Shown: positions 5,716 to 18,047, counted from the first letter of the stretch. The stretch is 64,000 nt of DNA from Escherichia coli (GCF_024700885.2 NZ_CP117016.1), one strand, 5' to 3'. Notes: generated by a model not told the origin, from the sequence alone. Numbers and translations: made by a program.

Positions 5716-6465
5716 TCAGATGGTCGAAATCAGCATTCTGTGACCTTCGATATCCAGACGGCGAAAATTCATCCCATAGGCCTGCGCCAGATTTGGCGGC
5801 GTGAGCACCTCTTCCCTGCGTCCACTGGCCAGCATTTTTCCACCTTTTAGCAACCACGCCCGATGCGCATGACGCAATGTATGGTTGAGATCGTGACTGC
5901 TCATCACAATCGCCAGTCCTTGCTGACACAGCGCGCTCAGAATTTTGTCTAATGCACTTTGTTGCGCAACATCAAGACTGTTCATCGGCTCATCAAGAAG
6001 CAGCAATTGGCCTGCGGGATTGGCTTGTGGTGTGATTTGCAGCACCACCGCAGCAAGACGTACGCGTTGCCATTCGCCGCCGGAAAGTTGATTGGTGCTA
6101 CGTCCGAGTTTGTCATCAAGAGCCAGCGCCCCTGCGACATCATTCAGTAGTTCGGTACGCGTTTTATCGTGCTGATGCAGTGTCAGGTAGTGCCAGACCA
6201 GCATTGCAAACGGCGGCGTCTGCTGTTGTGAAAGATAGGCGCGATGCAGCGCGAGTTTTGTTGCGGACCATGCTTCCAGTGGTTGCCCCGCGAACTGAAT
6301 GCTTCCCTTACCGCTGGTCATTCCGGCCATTCGCGCCAGTAAGGTACTCTTACCCGCGCCATTCGGCCCCACCAGATGCAGGATCTCCCCAGCCCGAACC
6401 TCGCCAGAAAGCGGCCCAAGGCGGGTAGATTCCGCAACATCCTGTAACTGCATCACAATAGACAT
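5716..6465 (-). CDS. btuD: Vitamin B12 ABC transporter ATPase
   Basis: 249-aa ORF with Walker [10 protein letters not shown] and ABC signature LSGGE. Confidence 0.9.
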
Positions 6466-7016
6466 TATTTCGCCAACGCCAGTTTAATGCTTTCCATCAC
6501 AATGGGATCTTCCGGCGTCATATCCGGGGAAAAACGCTGGATGACCAATCCGTCCCTGCCAACTAAAAATTTCTCAAAATTCCATAAAATATCATCAGGG
6601 TACAGCGGTGCACGACCTTTGCTGACCATACGGGCATAGAATCCGCTCTCTTCCGGCGCGACTGCGGTCGGCGCTGCGGCAATCAATTTTTGATACAGCG
6701 GATGGCGTCCTTCGCCATTAACTTCAATCTTACTGAACATCGGGAACGTCACCCCCCATGTAGTGGTGCAGTAAGTTTTAATCTCTTCATCGCTGCCCGG
6801 TTCTTGCTCCAGAAACTGGTTGCACGGGAATCCCAGCACCACAAAACCTCGATCGGCCCAGGCTTTCTGAATATTCTCCAACTGCTCATATTGCGGCGTT
6901 AAGCCACACTTTGAGGCGACATTGACAATCAACAGCACATTACCGGCGTACTTCTCCAGCGTGGTCACTTCACCGTCGATATCTTTCACTACGGTCGTCA
7001 GAATGGAATCTTGCAT
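6465..7016 (-). CDS. btuE: Glutathione peroxidase-like protein
   Basis: 183-aa ORF with GPx motifs ([16 protein letters not shown]); stop/start overlap with btuD. Confidence 0.9.
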
Positions 7017-7078
7017 CGTTTCTCCTGGGTGTGGTCAGTAAAAATCTTAGCTTTTAATCATAGACCGTCTTTTTGCGG

Positions 7079-8059
7079 CTAACGTCCTGCTTTTAACAAT
7101 AACCAGATAAACACCGGCGCACCCAACGTTGCGGTGACCACGCCAATAGGCAGCTCTGCGGCAGCTAATGCCAGGCGCGCTACAACATCAGCCAGCAGCA
7201 ATGCGCTCGCCCCTGCCAGCGCGCAGCCGGGAAGTAATACGCGATGATCGGTTAAACCACATAACCGGAGAATATGGGGGATCACCAGACCAATAAAGCC
7301 GATAGCACCCGCCAGCGCCACACTGACGCCAACCATCCAGCCGGTCGCTGCCACCAGCACATTGCGCCAGAACCACAGGGGTAAACCCAGTTGCCGCGCC
7401 GAGATCTCGCCAAGTGCTAACATATTCATCGATCTGGACTGACAACAGATCCACAACAACACGGGGATCAATGCCAGCATCAGCCAGCTTTGCCGCCAGT
7501 CTACGCCGCCAAAACCGCCCATCATCCAGTACATCAGCTGACGTAAATCAACAGAGGTGGAAAAGTAGATAGCCCACGTCATTAGTGCGCTACAGATAAT
7601 CCCTAATGCAACGCCAGCCAGCAATAACCGACTGGTCGAAAGATGACGACGGGCGAAACGTAAGAGTATTAAAGTGATGATAAGCGCGCCAGCAATCGCA
7701 CACAGCCCCAGCGCCCAGTTGGGGAGTTGCCCTTGCCCAAGCAATACCGCGGCGATAAGCCCCACGCCTGCGCCATTAGAGACGCCAAGTAGTCCAGGTT
7801 CTGCCAGAGGATTTTCAAATAACGCCTGCATTACAGCGCCGGATATAGCCAACGCCGCACCAACCAGCAATACAGCCAGCGTACGTGGCAGGCGAATTTG
7901 CCAGACGAACAGTTCGCCACGAGGAGTAAACCAGTCACCTGGCGAGATCCATTGTTCACCGGCGCAAAGGCTTAAGAGAAGCGCCAGCAGCATCAAAACT
8001 GACAGACATAATAACCAGCGAATATTTTGTCGCTGTTGTTGGCGGGCAAGTGTCAGCAT
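7079..8059 (-). CDS. btuC: Vitamin B12 ABC transporter permease
   Basis: 326-aa polytopic membrane ORF recognised as BtuC. Confidence 0.9.
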
Positions 8060-8113
8060 GGTATCCGTTCTGCTGAAGTGTCATGGCGTTGATTTTACGG
8101 TGACTCTTCGACA

Positions 8114-8141
8114 GTGAAAAGAAAAAAGGCCGCAGAGCGGC
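8114..8141. repeat. attL-side direct repeat of the prophage (copy of ihfA terminator stem)
   Basis: tgaaaagaaaaaaggccgcagagcggcc here versus tgaaagaaaaaaggccggagagcggcc at 42477-42503: one indel and one mismatch. Confidence 0.55.
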
Positions 8142-8267
8142 CATAAACACAAGTAAAAATCAATAAGTTAGATAATTATCAAAGACTTACAGACACACAA
8201 AAACACAGCCAACCACAACAAATAACAGGGATGTGGTCACTTTGTGGATCATATCGCCGCCATAAAT

Positions 8268-8708
8268 TTACTTAATAACAGTAACCACAGCCACAAGCAC
8301 GGCCATCGCAGACAGGACAATACCTGTGAGTAACCAAGTCTGATTTGCAAATGATTTCTGAAGTTCAGTACGATGCTCAGCCATCTCAACTTTCAGAGAC
8401 TGGCGTAAATCAGCCATCTCAGACTTCAGGGATTGGCGAGATTCTGCCATCTCAAGCCTCAACCCTTCGCGAATCTCCAGTACATCAGATTTGGTAGCAA
8501 AGGATTCGCTTCTTGTGGTGAGAGTAATCAGGTTGTTTTTGATTTCAGTCACATCACTTTCCAGGCAACTGACCCGCCGTTCAAGGTCGTCATTCATGCC
8601 ATCACCTCCATCATTACCACTTCCTGTTACTTGGTTGTTGGATACATTATAGGCATTCTCTTTCTTTTTTCTGAACCGCGAAATATGTGCAACATTCTCT
8701 GCCATCAC
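8268..8708 (-). CDS. Prophage cargo: coiled-coil protein with C-terminal transmembrane anchor and three 11-residue tandem repeats
   Basis: 146-aa ORF (possibly shorter from an internal Met); EMAESRQSLKS/EMADLRQSLKV/EMAEHRTELQK repeats then hydrophobic tail WLLTGIVLSAMAVLVAVVTVIK; ATGA overlap with upstream gene. Confidence 0.55.
   Translation of the reverse strand: MMAENVAHISRFRKKKENAYNVSNNQVTGSGNDGGDGMNDDLERRVSCLESDVTEIKNNLITLTTRSESFATKSDVLEIREGLRLEMAESRQSLKSEMADLRQSLKVEMAEHRTELQKSFANQTWLLTGIVLSAMAVLVAVVTVIK
8378..8476. repeat. Three tandem 33-bp repeats inside the 8268-8708 gene
   Basis: Copies at 8378-8410, 8411-8443 and 8444-8476, read directly from the sequence. Confidence 0.8.
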
Positions 8709-9067
8709 TTCTCATCACCCTGCTTGCCTACCCAGTTCATAAAGGCCCGGGCCGAGTAACGATGAACAAACCCACATCTGTTACAGGTAAGTCGGAATTC
8801 ATAGTTATGGATATTTTCCCGATCATGTCCCTCATATCCCGGATACCCAGTAAATGGACCGATGTAATCAAGCATAACAAAAGTGCCTAAATCACACTCC
8901 TCAGCAGTTTTCGGCTCAGGCCCCACCTCAACAATATTCGTCAAATACATGTACATATCCGTATCGCCACACGACAAACATTTTTCATTCGTAGACGACT
9001 CATTGAGAAAACGCGCAAAATTATCGAGCGTTGCCATTCTTTTAAGCTCATCTAAATGAAACTTCAC
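8705..9067 (-). CDS. Prophage cargo: Cys-rich hypothetical protein (CLSCGD...CNRCG)
   Basis: 120-aa ORF starting 3 nt after the int stop, same strand, so likely co-transcribed with C-int. Confidence 0.5.
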   Translation of the reverse strand: MKFHLDELKRMATLDNFARFLNESSTNEKCLSCGDTDMYMYLTNIVEVGPEPKTAEECDLGTFVMLDYIGPFTGYPGYEGHDRENIHNYEFRLTCNRCGFVHRYSARAFMNWVGKQGDEK

Positions 9068-9069
9068 TC

Positions 9070-10047
9070 TTAAGCACCTCCTAGTGGATTAAACCTCACC
9101 GCATCCTGCAGGTAATCCGGCGCAAGATGGGCATAAATCATCGTTGTCTGAATCTTTGCGTGCCCCAGAATTTTCTGGAGCGTGAGAATATTGCCACCGT
9201 TCATCATGAAATGACTGGCGAAGGTGTGGCGCAGCGCATGAACAGCCTGGCCGTCAGGAACATCAGGTGCGACCGTTTTGATGACATCGCGAACCAATGA
9301 ATAATCCAGCGTCGGAAACACCAGTTTCCCGCCCCGTTTTTTGATCTTTTCAAACAGGCTTTCAGAAATAGGAACGGTACGGTTTTTGCTGTTCTTCGTT
9401 TTTGAAAAAGTGATTCGACAATGAAGAACACGGCGCTGCTCCAGTACCGCTACCTCGCCCCATCGCGCCCCGGTCGACAGAAGGATTTCGACAGCCAGCC
9501 GTTCATCGGGATTTTCAGCCAGTGCATCCAGCAACTGAACACATTCAGACTTACTCAGATATCCCATTTCGCGCTCGTTAACCTTCATTCCTTTAAGGCC
9601 TTGAACGGGGTTATCGTTAAGAAAATGGCCGGATGAGATGAGTGCGGTAAACATCGCGCTTAACGCCCCAATCTCTCGATTTATGGTGCTGGGCTGTATC
9701 CCCTGCTCTATCCTGGACACACGTAGCTCGGTGAGCATCGTTGTATTAAGTCTATGCACGCACGGGTCATCCATTGCCTCACTCAAGCGCAGCAATTTAA
9801 GGCGCGTGTTATGCCCTGACTTCATTAGCTGGCCGTGGTATTTCCACCACAAGTCAATAAGCACTGACAGAGGACGGCGATCAATAGAGTTTCCTTTCCA
9901 CTCATTGTTATGCTGTTGCGCCAGCACCCACCGCTCATATAAAACTGCATCCGATTTCGTTTTAAATTTTTTGCGAATGCGTTTGCCTTTACGCCCCTCA
10001 GGGCGCATGTCAAGAAGATACCCTCCCGGAATTGATTTTATGCTCAT
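9070..10047 (-). CDS. int: P2-type tyrosine integrase
   Basis: Recognised similarity to P2 Int, including ...LSTGARWGE..., HALRHTFASHF and the C-terminal catalytic Tyr region; start set at MSIKS, the track ORF starts at an upstream GTG. Confidence 0.85.
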   Translation of the reverse strand: MSIKSIPGGYLLDMRPEGRKGKRIRKKFKTKSDAVLYERWVLAQQHNNEWKGNSIDRRPLSVLIDLWWKYHGQLMKSGHNTRLKLLRLSEAMDDPCVHRLNTTMLTELRVSRIEQGIQPSTINREIGALSAMFTALISSGHFLNDNPVQGLKGMKVNEREMGYLSKSECVQLLDALAENPDERLAVEILLSTGARWGEVAVLEQRRVLHCRITFSKTKNSKNRTVPISESLFEKIKKRGGKLVFPTLDYSLVRDVIKTVAPDVPDGQAVHALRHTFASHFMMNGGNILTLQKILGHAKIQTTMIYAHLAPDYLQDAVRFNPLGGA

Positions 10048-10096
10048 TCGTGAAACCCCAGCGTTACAAGACCACCATGCCCCCAGCGTTCCATGA

Positions 10097-10405
10097 TTAG
10101 CCGGGCTGTGTACCAGTCTTGCGGGGCTTTTGAGAAGACGATGTGTTTTCTGGCCCATCAGGGGAGAGAGAGGGACTGATCTGCCCAGCAGCCTCATTCG
10201 TTTTTCCTGTCATAAGCCAATTCATGTACTTAAAAAAGCGAGGGTGATTAACAATCTTGATAAGCACTTCGCCCCCTATGTTTTCAATCCGCCCCGTTTC
10301 ATAACGACGCAAAGTGCCGATAGGCACATCAATCAGGCCGCAAAATTCTTCGCGCGTTAAATCCTCTGATTCACGAATCACTCTAATTTTTTCACCGATA
10401 AGCAT
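10097..10405 (-). CDS. Immunity repressor, P2 C-like HTH protein
   Basis: About 102 aa from MLIGEKI; resembles P2 C (GxPxGTLxxYExG HTH region); divergent from the early operon. Confidence 0.75.
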   Translation of the reverse strand: MLIGEKIRVIRESEDLTREEFCGLIDVPIGTLRRYETGRIENIGGEVLIKIVNHPRFFKYMNWLMTGKTNEAAGQISPSLSPDGPENTSSSQKPRKTGTQPG

Positions 10406-10410
10406 TGACA

Positions 10411-10462
10411 GTGTTCCTATAAGTACACTAAGCTTGCGCACAAGGTGTACTTATAAGTACAC
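10411..10462. promoter_or_regulatory. Putative operator of the immunity switch: 18-bp perfect palindrome plus imperfect upstream copy
   Basis: gtgtacttataagtacac at 10445-10462 is a perfect inverted repeat; gtgttcctataagtacac at 10411-10428 is a degenerate copy; between divergent C and cox-position genes. Confidence 0.5.
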
Positions 10463-10501: not shown

Positions 10502-10780
10502 ATGGCAAAAGTCCTGAACACACACGAACAGGCAGACTTTGAGCGTTTAGCAGCGTTCTATCCCTACCGCGATGAGCATGGGTTACCAGTACTTGAAGAA
10601 AGCCTGAAAGATTACGCAAAGCGTACCAACCAAGCTGTTAACACAGTGAAAAGACAGGCTGACAGAGGTTCAATTCCCATCAACCAAGATGAAAAGAACT
10701 CAAGACGCACAGTAAATCTTTTCGCTCTTTTCCTGAAAACAATCAGGAGCGCAGAGAAATACGTGCAGATGACAAAATAA
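10502..10780 (+). CDS. First early-operon gene in the cox/apl position (putative excisionase/early regulator)
   Basis: 92-aa ORF divergent from C; assignment is positional, sequence similarity to P2 Cox not established. Confidence 0.45.
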   Translation: MAKVLNTHEQADFERLAAFYPYRDEHGLPVLEESLKDYAKRTNQAVNTVKRQADRGSIPINQDEKNSRRTVNLFALFLKTIRSAEKYVQMTK

Positions 10781-15703: not shown

Positions 15704-16663
15704 ATGAAAATTTGTATCGACGACGGCTCCACCAACATCAAGCTGGCATGGACTGAGAACGGCGAACGCCGCAACGCCATCAGCCCGAACAGCTTCAAGT
15801 CGGAATGGTCTGCGCCGTTCGGTGGCACGCAGCCCGCGAACTACATGCTTGATGGCGTGCGCTATGGTTTTGATCCGGTCAGCGATCGCTTTATCCAGAC
15901 GACCGACACACAATACCAGTACAGCGATGTGAATGTCATTGCCATTCATCACGCGCTGGTCAAATCAGGCATCACGCCACAGGAGGTGGATGTGGTTGTC
16001 ACCCTGCCACTGAGCGAGTATTTCGACACAAACGCACAGCCGGACATGGCCAACATCAACCGCAAAAAAGCAAACGTTATGCGCCCGGTGGAATACCAGA
16101 ACGGCGAAGCATTCACTATCCGTAATGTACGGGTTATGCCTGAATCCATTCCGGCTGGCTTTAAAGCACTGGCTGACATGAGTCCGTTTGAATCCCTGCT
16201 GATTGTGGATTTAGGTGGAACCACGCTGGATGTGGCAAAGGTTCAGGGACAACTGGCAGGTATCAGCCAGGTGTTTTGCGATCCACACGTAGGCGTTTCC
16301 CTGATGGCCGATGCAGTACTGTCGGTGATGGCCACTAACGGTATGCGTACCAGTCACCACATCGCCAATACCATTATCGAACATCGCCATGATGAAGCCT
16401 GGCTGCGCCAGCACATCCACAATGACGCGCATTACGCCAGCCTGATGGCGGTTATTCGTGAAAAGGAAGAAACACTGAAACAACGCGTGATCCGCGCGCT
16501 GGCGGGTTTTTCGGGTTACGGGCGGGTGATGGTTGTCGGTGGCGGGGCGGAGATTGTGGCACCCGCTATCCGCGAAGCCTGCGGAGTTAATGCGACTTTC
16601 ATCGCGGACGGGGTGCCACAGTTTGCTCTGGTTAATGGGCTGTACGCAATGGACAAGGAGTAA
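15704..16663 (+). CDS. ParM/StbA-like actin-family segregation ATPase
   Basis: 319 aa; IDDGSTNIKL, YSDVNVIAIHHAL, VMPESIPAG, LIVDLGGTTLD, VMVVGGGAE, LVNGLY match remembered R1 ParM blocks. Confidence 0.8.
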   Translation: MKICIDDGSTNIKLAWTENGERRNAISPNSFKSEWSAPFGGTQPANYMLDGVRYGFDPVSDRFIQTTDTQYQYSDVNVIAIHHALVKSGITPQEVDVVVTLPLSEYFDTNAQPDMANINRKKANVMRPVEYQNGEAFTIRNVRVMPESIPAGFKALADMSPFESLLIVDLGGTTLDVAKVQGQLAGISQVFCDPHVGVSLMADAVLSVMATNGMRTSHHIANTIIEHRHDEAWLRQHIHNDAHYASLMAVIREKEETLKQRVIRALAGFSGYGRVMVVGGGAEIVAPAIREACGVNATFIADGVPQFALVNGLYAMDKE

Positions 16664-16667
16664 ACCA

Positions 16668-16979
16668 ATGACGACACCAACCAGGCGGATAAGTTTCTAT
16701 CTGAAGCCTGCGGCCGTCAAGAACGAAAGCGAAGCATGCGCCTGGCTGGACAGCCTTACACCGGAAGCCCGCAAAAGCGGCCAACGCGTGGCTTTTCTGG
16801 CCGGGCTGGCACTTCTGAAAATGAATCCGGCAGAGGCTTACCGACTGGCTGCATGGGCTGACGATGAGGCGTTATCAGTGACACAAACCAGGACAGAACG
16901 CCCCCTGTCACAGCCAGTACCAACCGCACAGATAACCAGTCAGATGGCCGGAAATATCAGGGCGTTATTTCCTGAATAA
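16668..16979 (+). CDS. ParR/StbB-like centromere-binding adaptor
   Basis: RRISFYLKP...AFLAGLAL...IRALFP resembles R1 ParR; immediately downstream of parM-like gene. Confidence 0.65.
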   Translation: MTTPTRRISFYLKPAAVKNESEACAWLDSLTPEARKSGQRVAFLAGLALLKMNPAEAYRLAAWADDEALSVTQTRTERPLSQPVPTAQITSQMAGNIRALFPE

Positions 16980-17042
16980 CACAACGTCAGGGCGAGTTCG
17001 CCCTGATCTCCATCTCAGAACATAAACAAGAAGAGCGACTTA

Positions 17043-17426
17043 ATGAGCAAAATCAACTATCAGGCATTACGTGAACGTTATTCACCTGCACCAGTACCAA
17101 AATGCCCTATTTGCTGCGAAGAAATGTCAATTCAGCGAATATCTGGAGCACAGGTTGTTTATGGCTGCTCCGGTTATGGTGATGATGGAGATTTCAAAAT
17201 TGGTCGAACTCTTGCCGACGAACATTATGAAAAATCACGCGTAACAGTGTTGGATGTCGGGGATCCTGAAGTATTGGCGCTACTTGATTGGCTGGAAACC
17301 AAAGACAACCGAATCGCTGAACTGGAAAAAATCGCCACTGACTATGCACTTAAATTCCAGAAAGCACAGGACGCATTAAAGTACGCCGCTTTGCTGCATA
17401 GCAGGTCAGCGCAGCTACAAGACTAA
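17043..17426 (+). CDS. Hypothetical protein with CPICC motif and C-terminal coiled coil
   Basis: 127-aa ORF in the variable region between A and cos. Confidence 0.45.
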   Translation: MSKINYQALRERYSPAPVPKCPICCEEMSIQRISGAQVVYGCSGYGDDGDFKIGRTLADEHYEKSRVTVLDVGDPEVLALLDWLETKDNRIAELEKIATDYALKFQKAQDALKYAALLHSRSAQLQD

Positions 17427-17516
17427 CTTAAAGCGGAAGATTAATACATGGTGAGTCGGGGTAATTTGTTTTTATCCCGACAAATAAACAAAAAAGTGGA
17501 CTATCTCTGTAGTATC

Positions 17517-18047
17517 TTATTCAGCATCGTCTCGTGCAGTCTGTGCATACGTCACAACAACGCCCAATGCATTAGTTTTCTTTTCAACATAGATAATATT
17601 GTCATATTCATAGTTACCATACGGATAGCAAATAAGAATATTTTTATGCAGATCGGGATCATCAACAAACGCTCCGGAACAGCTTCTTGAACTACCGGAT
17701 GTATACTCATACGGTGCAACATATGATGATGTTACTCCTGGTAAAAAATAAGTCACCATCATAAGAGGGATAATCAGGAATATCCCTGTAAGAATGCAAG
17801 AGCCAGCATAAACCTTCAGGTATTCCGACAGTCCTTTCCAGCCACTTTGCTTCACTACCCCCCTCTTCACCAGAAACAAGGAGAAGAAAAAGGACATACC
17901 CATACTACATAAGATGTAATAATTGGATATACGCGAATTAAGATATGTAATCCTGTAGATATCTGCCCTCCACCAGTAAAAGAGGAAAATAATCCCTAGC
18001 ACTGAAACAGTCATGCAAATCAAATAAGGATATGAATCTTTCTTCAT
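17517..18047 (-). CDS. Low-GC prophage cargo: small integral membrane protein
   Basis: 176 aa with 3-4 predicted TM helices, about 25-30% GC, in the P2 tin/old-equivalent position. Confidence 0.55.
   Translation of the reverse strand: MKKDSYPYLICMTVSVLGIIFLFYWWRADIYRITYLNSRISNYYILCSMGMSFFFSLFLVKRGVVKQSGWKGLSEYLKVYAGSCILTGIFLIIPLMMVTYFLPGVTSSYVAPYEYTSGSSRSCSGAFVDDPDLHKNILICYPYGNYEYDNIIYVEKKTNALGVVVTYAQTARDDAE

Follow-up and report, generated by a model that had tools for sequence, protein, structure and literature searches.

Features of the locus

The window analysed here, a stretch of 64,000 nucleotides from Escherichia coli (NZ_CP117016.1), contains a P2-like prophage of about 34 kb, which lies after the host gene btuC and has ihfA and pheT on its far side. 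The order on the minus strand is ihfA, attR, ogr to cox (divergent), the C repressor gene, int, two small open reading frames (ORF1 and ORF2), attL and btuC. The features are listed below, with positions counted from the first letter of the window.

5716-8059, minus strand: E. coli host genes btuD, btuE and btuC
7079-8059, minus strand: btuC, the host gene directly adjoining the attachment site
8118-8142, minus strand: attL core, GGCCGCTCTGCGGCC then TTTTTTCTTT, which doubles as an intrinsic terminator hairpin
8232-8252, minus strand: right border of the cassette, which is conserved (ATGATCCACAAAGTGACCACA; it contains CCACA twice, as direct repeats)
8253-9085, minus strand: variable cargo cassette (833 bp, 44% GC), including the last 3-4 codons of int
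8268-8708, minus strand: ORF2, long form (146 aa from GTG 8708-8706, 145 aa from ATG 8705-8703)
8268-8597, minus strand: ORF2, predicted short form (109 aa, from internal ATG 8597-8595)
8274-8330, minus strand: C-terminal transmembrane (TM) helix of ORF2, LTGIVLSAMAVLVAVVTVI, with an NQTW motif before it
8364-8462, minus strand: three tandem 33-bp repeats in ORF2 (11-residue hendecad coiled-coil units)
8705-9067, minus strand: ORF1 (120 aa), a putative cytoplasmic four-cysteine zinc-ribbon protein (phrog_4293 at 3.4e-30)
8980-8978, 8971-8969, 8785-8783 and 8776-8774, minus strand: cysteine codons of ORF1
9070-10050, minus strand: int, tyrosine integrase of the P2 type (phrog_1 at 7e-71; phage integrase in RefSeq)
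10097-10441, minus strand: C-type immunity repressor (HTH; phrog_147 at 3e-31), first gene of the lysogenic transcript
10502-10780, divergent: cox-like gene, with a layout as in P2 C-int
42479-42503, minus strand: attR core (ihfA terminator) at the opposite end of the prophage

The attL and attR cores share an exact repeat of 15 nt, or 25 nt with one mismatch (8118-8142 vs 42479-42503), and the 25-nt core at both prophage ends is GGCCGCTCT(G/C)CGGCCTTTTTTCTTT. According to the terminator scan, the attL hairpin has six G-C pairs and a T run. As read from the sequence, the prophage is integrated at the ihfA terminator beside btuC, and the attL core is a copy of this terminator that arose by integration. 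The border element at 8232-8252 is probably an Int arm-type (P') binding site, judging by its position as in P2. The present att site is not mentioned in Nilsson et al. 2011 (PMC3448106).

Two observations concern the host side of the junction. A 2026 survey (PMC13100340) counts the BtuC permease among the auxiliary metabolic genes of P2-like viruses, which is probably a prophage-boundary artefact because btuC is the host gene flanking this attachment site. Besides, no Rfam family explains the region, and the sole match was a sub-threshold one to the enterobacterial sRNA STnc540 (8060-8183, minus strand; 23 bits vs a gathering score of 38), which extends over attL and the leader of btuC. Such an RNA of the ihfA-btuC intergenic region may be interrupted, or formed anew, by the prophage.

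The initial annotation had reported two minus-strand ORFs behind int with almost no spacing, and the coordinates agree with this: int ends with TAA at 9072-9070 (its mechanical ORF extends up to 10197) and ORF1 starts at 9067. It had also stated that canonical P2 has nothing between int and the attachment site. This holds as well, since in P2 the int stop and the attP core are separated by 80 bp with no gene between, and the P' arm overlaps the 3' end of int.

An exchangeable cassette between int and the P' arm

We aligned the DNA of four cargo variants, and it turned out that identity continues to AATCC, 13 nt before the int stop, and returns at ATGATCCACAAAGTGACCACA just past the cargo stop, from where it runs through attL. 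These borders define the variable cassette as 8253-9085; they are nucleotide-exact and lie within the last int codons and at the attP arm. The 3'-most codons of int vary by cassette and encode the Shine-Dalgarno sequence of the first cargo gene. The GC content is 44% in the cassette and 52% in the prophage.

For the survey of cargo, we used the integrases of 98.5-99% identity found in 296 of 5426 complete E. coli genomes, and in every locus inspected the integrase was beside btuC. Four cargo types follow it: the ORF1-ORF2 pair (85 genomes), an O157-type pair (39 genomes), an O139-type pair (19 genomes) and an unrelated single gene of 131 aa (phrog_14142, E2348/69-type; 158 genomes). The three pair alleles belong to the same PHROGs with a protein identity of only 23-35%, and the pair is absent from about half of the prophages that have this integrase. 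The commonest alternative cargo, phrog_14142, is a soluble protein and is also carried by EPEC E2348/69 (positions 2582-2977 of locus L062).

The proposal that the two genes are cargo and not core is thus borne out by the empty site in P2 and by the sharp, replaceable cassette with its deviating GC content. The pair is not a ubiquitous constituent of this phage lineage, because near-identical integrases precede different cargo. The two genes form an accessory ("moron") cassette, which is exchangeable and fills the slot that a P2-like prophage has between int and the P' arm; we consider this architecture and cargo status very probable. Whatever the function is, the locus is a clean natural case of cassette exchange.

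Such slots have been described before. In a 2026 preprint (bioRxiv 10.64898/2026.02.27.708500), the slot between int and att is listed as a minor hotspot of defence in P2-like phages, with 3% of their recognised defence systems, and in K139-like phages a hotspot lies between the repressor gene (cI) and int (Rousset et al. 2022, PMC9122126). The present locus resembles these P2-like hotspots (int-att and repressor-int) in the use of the same slot and in the varied cargo on near-identical backbones. It differs in that the cassette is not among the recognised systems, and its defence activity is putative. The pair is therefore uncharacterised, but sits in an already described kind of locus.

ORF1, a putative zinc-ribbon protein

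ORF1 runs from GTG 9067-9065 to TGA 8707-8705. PGAP starts it at ATG 9037 (110 aa; RefSeq WP_001383222.1). The sequence comparison supports GTG 9067 rather than this ATG, because homologues favour it together with a perfect Shine-Dalgarno site (AGGAGGT at 9082-9076, 8 nt before the GTG).

The two CxxC pairs, C30/C33 and C95/C98, had been called zinc-ribbon-like, and all four cysteines are invariant in 99 homologues. The AlphaFold2 model has a pLDDT of 82, which rises to 90-95 in the strands flanking each cysteine knuckle. The assignment as a zinc ribbon is supported by this model, where the two conserved CxxC knuckles are predicted to come together in the fold. No specific zinc-ribbon family of Pfam was matched, and ORF1 has no relative in Pfam, NCBIfam, PADLOC or solved structures. 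A profile search against 1.84 billion representatives gave about 160 clusters of homologues, and Foldseek gave only uncharacterised proteins from Enterobacterales and a few other Proteobacteria.

ORF2, a predicted tail-anchored coiled-coil protein

ORF2 matches phrog_9415 at 1.3e-42, is named "hypothetical protein" in RefSeq (WP_000829983.1) and ends with TAA at 8270-8268. The initial annotation had placed an ATGA overlap between the two genes at 8705-8708. This needs correction: the sequence there is GTGATG, which gives a 4-nt overlap (GTGA), or one of 1 nt if the ATG is used.

From the N terminus, ORF2 consists of a peptide some 25 residues long, a linker rich in Gly and Asp, a coiled coil with the conserved pattern LExRVxxLExD, variable repeats, the motif N-x-x-W and the TM helix. 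The three 11-residue repeats encoded by 33-bp DNA units were found again at 8462-8364 (LRLEMAESRQS, LKSEMADLRQS and LKVEMAEHRTE; period 33, 2.4 copies and 81% matches in Tandem Repeats Finder). The C-terminal TM helix (residues 126-144) stands as well, with a Kyte-Doolittle 19-residue mean of 2.65 and only one residue after it, and AlphaFold2 predicts the helix to be continuous to the C terminus with a pLDDT of about 90. ORF2 is a predicted tail-anchored inner-membrane protein, nearly all of which is cytoplasmic.

The lengths of the homologues step by 11 aa (87/98/109 and 123/134/145/156 aa). For instance, the O157-type allele has five LKGELKxDIAx units, and other alleles expand unrelated 11-residue units. 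These length steps, made from unrelated units, point to selection on the length of the rod with its helical phase retained. A tblastn search of ORF2 against the phage collection returned nothing, for which the low-complexity filter is the likely cause, and relatives are found by PHROG and protein searches.

An internal translation start in ORF2

A second start signal lies inside ORF2, with the Shine-Dalgarno sequence GGAGGT at 8609-8604 and a spacer of 6 nt before the ATG at 8597-8595. A methionine right after the Gly-rich stretch occurs in 14 of 15 lineages, and the motif GGRGG, spelled by the Gly codons, is found 6-11 nt before the internal ATG in all 15 loci examined. By these features GGRGG and the ATG are read as a conserved internal ribosome-binding site. 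In addition, the upstream frame is open back to the ORF1 stop in all 11 divergent lineages compared, with 0 stops in frame vs 23 and 66 in the other two frames of the extension, which carries a loosely conserved hydrophobic-[FY]-P-basic motif.

Since the internal start signal is conserved and the upstream frame stays open, two isoforms of ORF2, a long and a short one, are expected, which is a new prediction made here from the sequence. Alternatively, the internal ATG could be the sole real start, and the upstream frame could be open for another reason. Current annotation pipelines treat this conserved start inconsistently: some choose the long start and others the internal Met, and many give the short form only. 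For example, more than 1000 contigs carry the cluster of the 109-aa short form, and Klebsiella phage ST101-KPC2phi6.1 has its homologue annotated as a CDS of 70 aa.

A promoter-like site (TTCAGA-18-TATAAT; 8646-8675, minus strand; 10 of 12 matches) is located in the 5' part of ORF2 before the internal ATG and could drive a transcript for the short form only. It was rejected as a candidate, with 3 such sites found vs 4.3 expected in shuffled sequence.

Distribution of the pair in other phages and genomes

To summarize the gene neighbourhoods, in all 35 distinct loci the gene after the ORF1 homologue encodes a tail-anchored coiled-coil protein and either overlaps this homologue or directly adjoins it. 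Because of this pairing, and because both ORFs match PHROG families, they are not chance reading frames. By their arrangement ORF1 and ORF2 appear to be translationally coupled, and they always travel together in temperate phages of Enterobacterales. PHROG 4293 and PHROG 9415 have members in Escherichia, Salmonella, Klebsiella, Enterobacter, Proteus, Photorhabdus and others. A literature search with the accessions of both RefSeq proteins (WP_001383222.1 and WP_000829983.1) found nothing.

The pair occupies several kinds of positions linked to lysogeny. In P2-like prophages of E. coli, Salmonella and Klebsiella it stands behind int. In 186-like prophages its place is between the repressor gene and int, in some cases together with a tail-anchored protein that is Flk_N-like. 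It is also found beside Arc/Ant antirepressor (immunity-I-type) and moron genes in temperate phages of 48-50 kb, among them Salmonella phage SPN3UB and Klebsiella phage ST101-KPC2phi6.1. One further locus, from Providencia, came from a profile search of genome contigs.

In the 186-like operon (4688-5590 of L008; also L031, L033 and L037), the protein that precedes the pair is a Flk_N-like protein of 209 aa (phrog_5825) with a C-terminal TM helix of its own. An acidic DUF8087 protein of 82 aa also precedes the pair there, and the whole is a larger lysogeny-operon module.

Besides, the pair or a part of it exists where there is no prophage. A Salmonella remnant (5751-6459 of L006) keeps an intact ORF2 homologue beside two hok/gef genes, with ORF1 cut to its C-terminal third. 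In another enterobacterial chromosome (5001-5728 of L056), seen in many samples, an intact pair stands alone beside ihfA. The retention of the pair after prophage decay counts in favour of the phage-conflict role proposed below, but could also be neutral.

The internal start implying two isoforms, the allelic cassette swapping and the spread to non-P2 phages are points that go beyond the initial annotation.

Comparison with known protein families

The resemblance of ORF2 to XhlA-type proteins, which had been proposed from the architecture, is confirmed in part. What stands is the architecture itself and a distant homologue: the 70-aa short-form homologue of Klebsiella phage ST101-KPC2phi6.1 matches Pfam XhlA (PF10779) at 2e-6 over the entire model. 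What does not stand is a match of ORF2 itself, which has none to PF10779 even at E<=10, and a relationship at the profile level, since hhalign of the ORF2 family against SPP1 gp24.1 gave a probability of 2%, which is not significant. The N-x-x-W motif before the TM helix is common to ORF2 and gp24.1, and this junction is all that they have in common.

Like XhlA of PBSX and gp24.1 of SPP1, ORF2 is small, with an N-terminal cytoplasmic coiled coil, N-x-x-W and a single C-terminal TM helix. Unlike these proteins of Bacillus phages, ORF2 belongs to a Gram-negative host and is partnered by a zinc-ribbon protein; its additional features are a Gly/Asp linker behind an extra N-terminal peptide, hendecad repeats and an internal start. 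It is located outside a lysis cassette, with no XhlB-type holin or endolysin adjoining; its neighbours are int and attL, and the lysis genes are about 17 kb off on the other strand. XhlA-type proteins kill only with a second holin of two TM helices and are harmless alone (PMC6316719), and the need of XhlA and gp24.1 for a second holin is also described in PMC5589764. The label "membrane-disrupting" is for this reason overstated. No such partner is adjacent to ORF2.

The comparison of ORF2 with DUF1640 (CCDC90-like, PF07798), the PGAP name for the O157-type allele, stayed below significance (E = 0.066; 0.003 for the best member of the alignment). The two are alike in a coiled coil with a C-terminal TM helix; the match is probably compositional, and the name is then without functional information. 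Neither ORF has a specific match in PADLOC-DB 2.0.0, where the best scores were Cas12a (0.03) and LmuB (0.007). Matches of the alleles to ZorA, LmuB and LeoBC in PADLOC (5e-5 or weaker) were rejected, for they cover only coiled-coil stretches and reflect composition.

Transcription and proposed mechanism

A terminator scan from the repressor gene to attL found no convincing terminator before the attL hairpin, which is the first strong terminator downstream of C-int-ORF1-ORF2. Because of this, and because there is no spacing between the genes, the layout makes it fairly likely that the pair is transcribed with C and int in the lysogen.

For a prediction with AlphaFold2, ORF1 and ORF2 were fused through a Gly-Ser linker, and an alignment of 15 natural pairs and unpaired homologues served as input. 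The model contains helices at 187-219 and 222-294 with a pLDDT of about 90. Residues 5-7 of ORF2 become a beta strand with a local pLDDT of about 67, and the linkers are below 50. Since all other strands in the model belong to ORF1, this suggests that the long form uses its N-terminal peptide to dock on ORF1, which is a weak prediction of modest confidence.

The proposed mechanism has the following steps. In the lysogen, transcription would start at the repressor promoter, cover C and int along with the pair, and stop at the attL hairpin. The long form of ORF2 would hold ORF1 at the membrane via its N-terminal peptide, and the short form, which is without the docking peptide, would join the complex by way of the coiled coil and modulate it. 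An infection cue would be sensed by ORF1, the XhlA-like anchor of ORF2 would disturb the inner membrane or work together with the holin of the incoming phage, and the infection would end in exclusion or in premature lysis (abortive infection).

A role in phage conflict is proposed because of the hotspot position and the swapping of alleles on constant backbones, and also because of the pairing of a cytoplasmic with a membrane protein, as in lambda RexAB, and the holin-helper ancestry of ORF2. RexA and RexB of lambda are encoded by two genes co-transcribed with the repressor gene; one protein is cytoplasmic and the other is in the membrane, and depolarisation follows upon infection. The likeness is in the proposed functional logic and by design only; there is no relation in sequence or fold, and RexB is polytopic whereas ORF2 is tail-anchored. 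In P22 SieB/Esc and lambda S107/S105, an in-frame internal start yields a shorter protein which modulates the longer one. ORF2 shares the in-frame internal start with them, without homology, and its predicted forms differ by 36 cytoplasmic residues. XhlA-type proteins are known from lysis cassettes and not from defence, which speaks against an anti-phage reading.

Taken together, a membrane-acting exclusion or abortive-infection module expressed by the lysogen is the best explanation overall and the most likely role of the pair, with a chance that we put slightly short of even. The anti-phage function as such is offered as a candidate, tentatively. A more elaborate version is unlikely: this would be an unrecognised two-component anti-phage system, in which a tethered zinc-ribbon sensor acts with a trigger set by isoform ratio and rod length, the holin is hijacked or mimicked, the infected cell dies early and alleles are exchanged in an arms race. 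If the pair protects lysogens, it would be a compact new system of about 0.8 kb in the prophage defence repertoire. It would also give the first function for PHROG 4293 and PHROG 9415, and it would mean that XhlA-type holin helpers are reused outside lysis cassettes.

Alternative roles

The pair might instead serve lysis by the prophage itself, with ORF2 working like XhlA or gp24.1 together with the P2 holin Y when the lytic cycle ends, or tuning the timing, and ORF1 as a regulator. The XhlA-like architecture and the PF10779 match of one homologue speak for this, and the two-start design resembles holin/antiholin pairs, which counts in the same direction. The dependence of XhlA and gp24.1 on a second holin fits it too (PMC6316719, PMC5589764). 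However, the pair is in the leftward lysogenic unit behind int, on the strand opposite to the lysis genes and far from them, and the identical prophage backbone in L001 is annotated with a full P2-type lysis set (holin, M15 peptidase, a DUF2570 protein and LysC). The pair is dispensable for lysis, because prophages with this integrase lack it in about half of the cases; elsewhere it adjoins antirepressor and moron genes and not endolysins. We regard this role as improbable.

A low probability is likewise given to lysogenic conversion directed at the host, in which the pair would alter, for example, virulence, stress tolerance or the physiology of the envelope. In favour are the position, by which expression in the lysogen is implied, the membrane product and the retention of pairs without a prophage. 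XhlA-domain genes that adjoin cI in Mannheimia phages have been speculated to play a part in virulence (PMC4553209), which is in line with this explanation. But ORF2 has essentially no periplasmic or surface part, and conflict systems are the more typical setting for a swapping of highly divergent alleles on identical backbones. A further objection is that Pfam's "haemolysin" label derives from an unrelated Xenorhabdus protein.

Still less probable is an addiction module of toxin-antitoxin type, in which the membrane toxin ORF2 would be checked by ORF1 or by its own short form and the loss of the prophage would be penalised. The genes are indeed small, overlapping and by their layout translationally coupled, with one membrane product, the Salmonella remnant keeps the ORF2 homologue by hok/gef genes, and pairs persist without a prophage. 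Nevertheless, neither ORF matches a toxin or antitoxin family in NCBIfam, Pfam or PADLOC, and the truncated ORF1 beside an intact ORF2 in that remnant makes an essential antidote unlikely, unless ORF2 is silent there.

The idea that ORF1 is a zinc-ribbon DNA-binding cofactor or directionality factor for int, for which the cassette position between int and the P' arm, the shared transcript and the zinc ribbon could be cited, is rejected as highly improbable, because integrases of 98.5-99% identity work with an unrelated gene or with alleles of about 25% identity, and besides the pair is also present at sites distant from any integrase, ORF1 is obligately paired with a membrane protein, and a cox-like gene is already present at 10502-10780, Cox being the excision factor in P2.

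Other variable genes of the prophage

Between gpD and the ogr-like gene, an ORF of 386 aa (40262-41422, minus strand) has 32% GC against 52% in the prophage and no match in PHROGs, PADLOC, NCBIfam or Pfam; it looks like a further foreign cargo gene. The slot between gene A and portal gene Q (15704-18047), where P2 has old and tin, contains a ParM-like partition protein (phrog_691, 3e-90) and two small genes, and three different genes are found there in the otherwise similar SCU-387 prophage.
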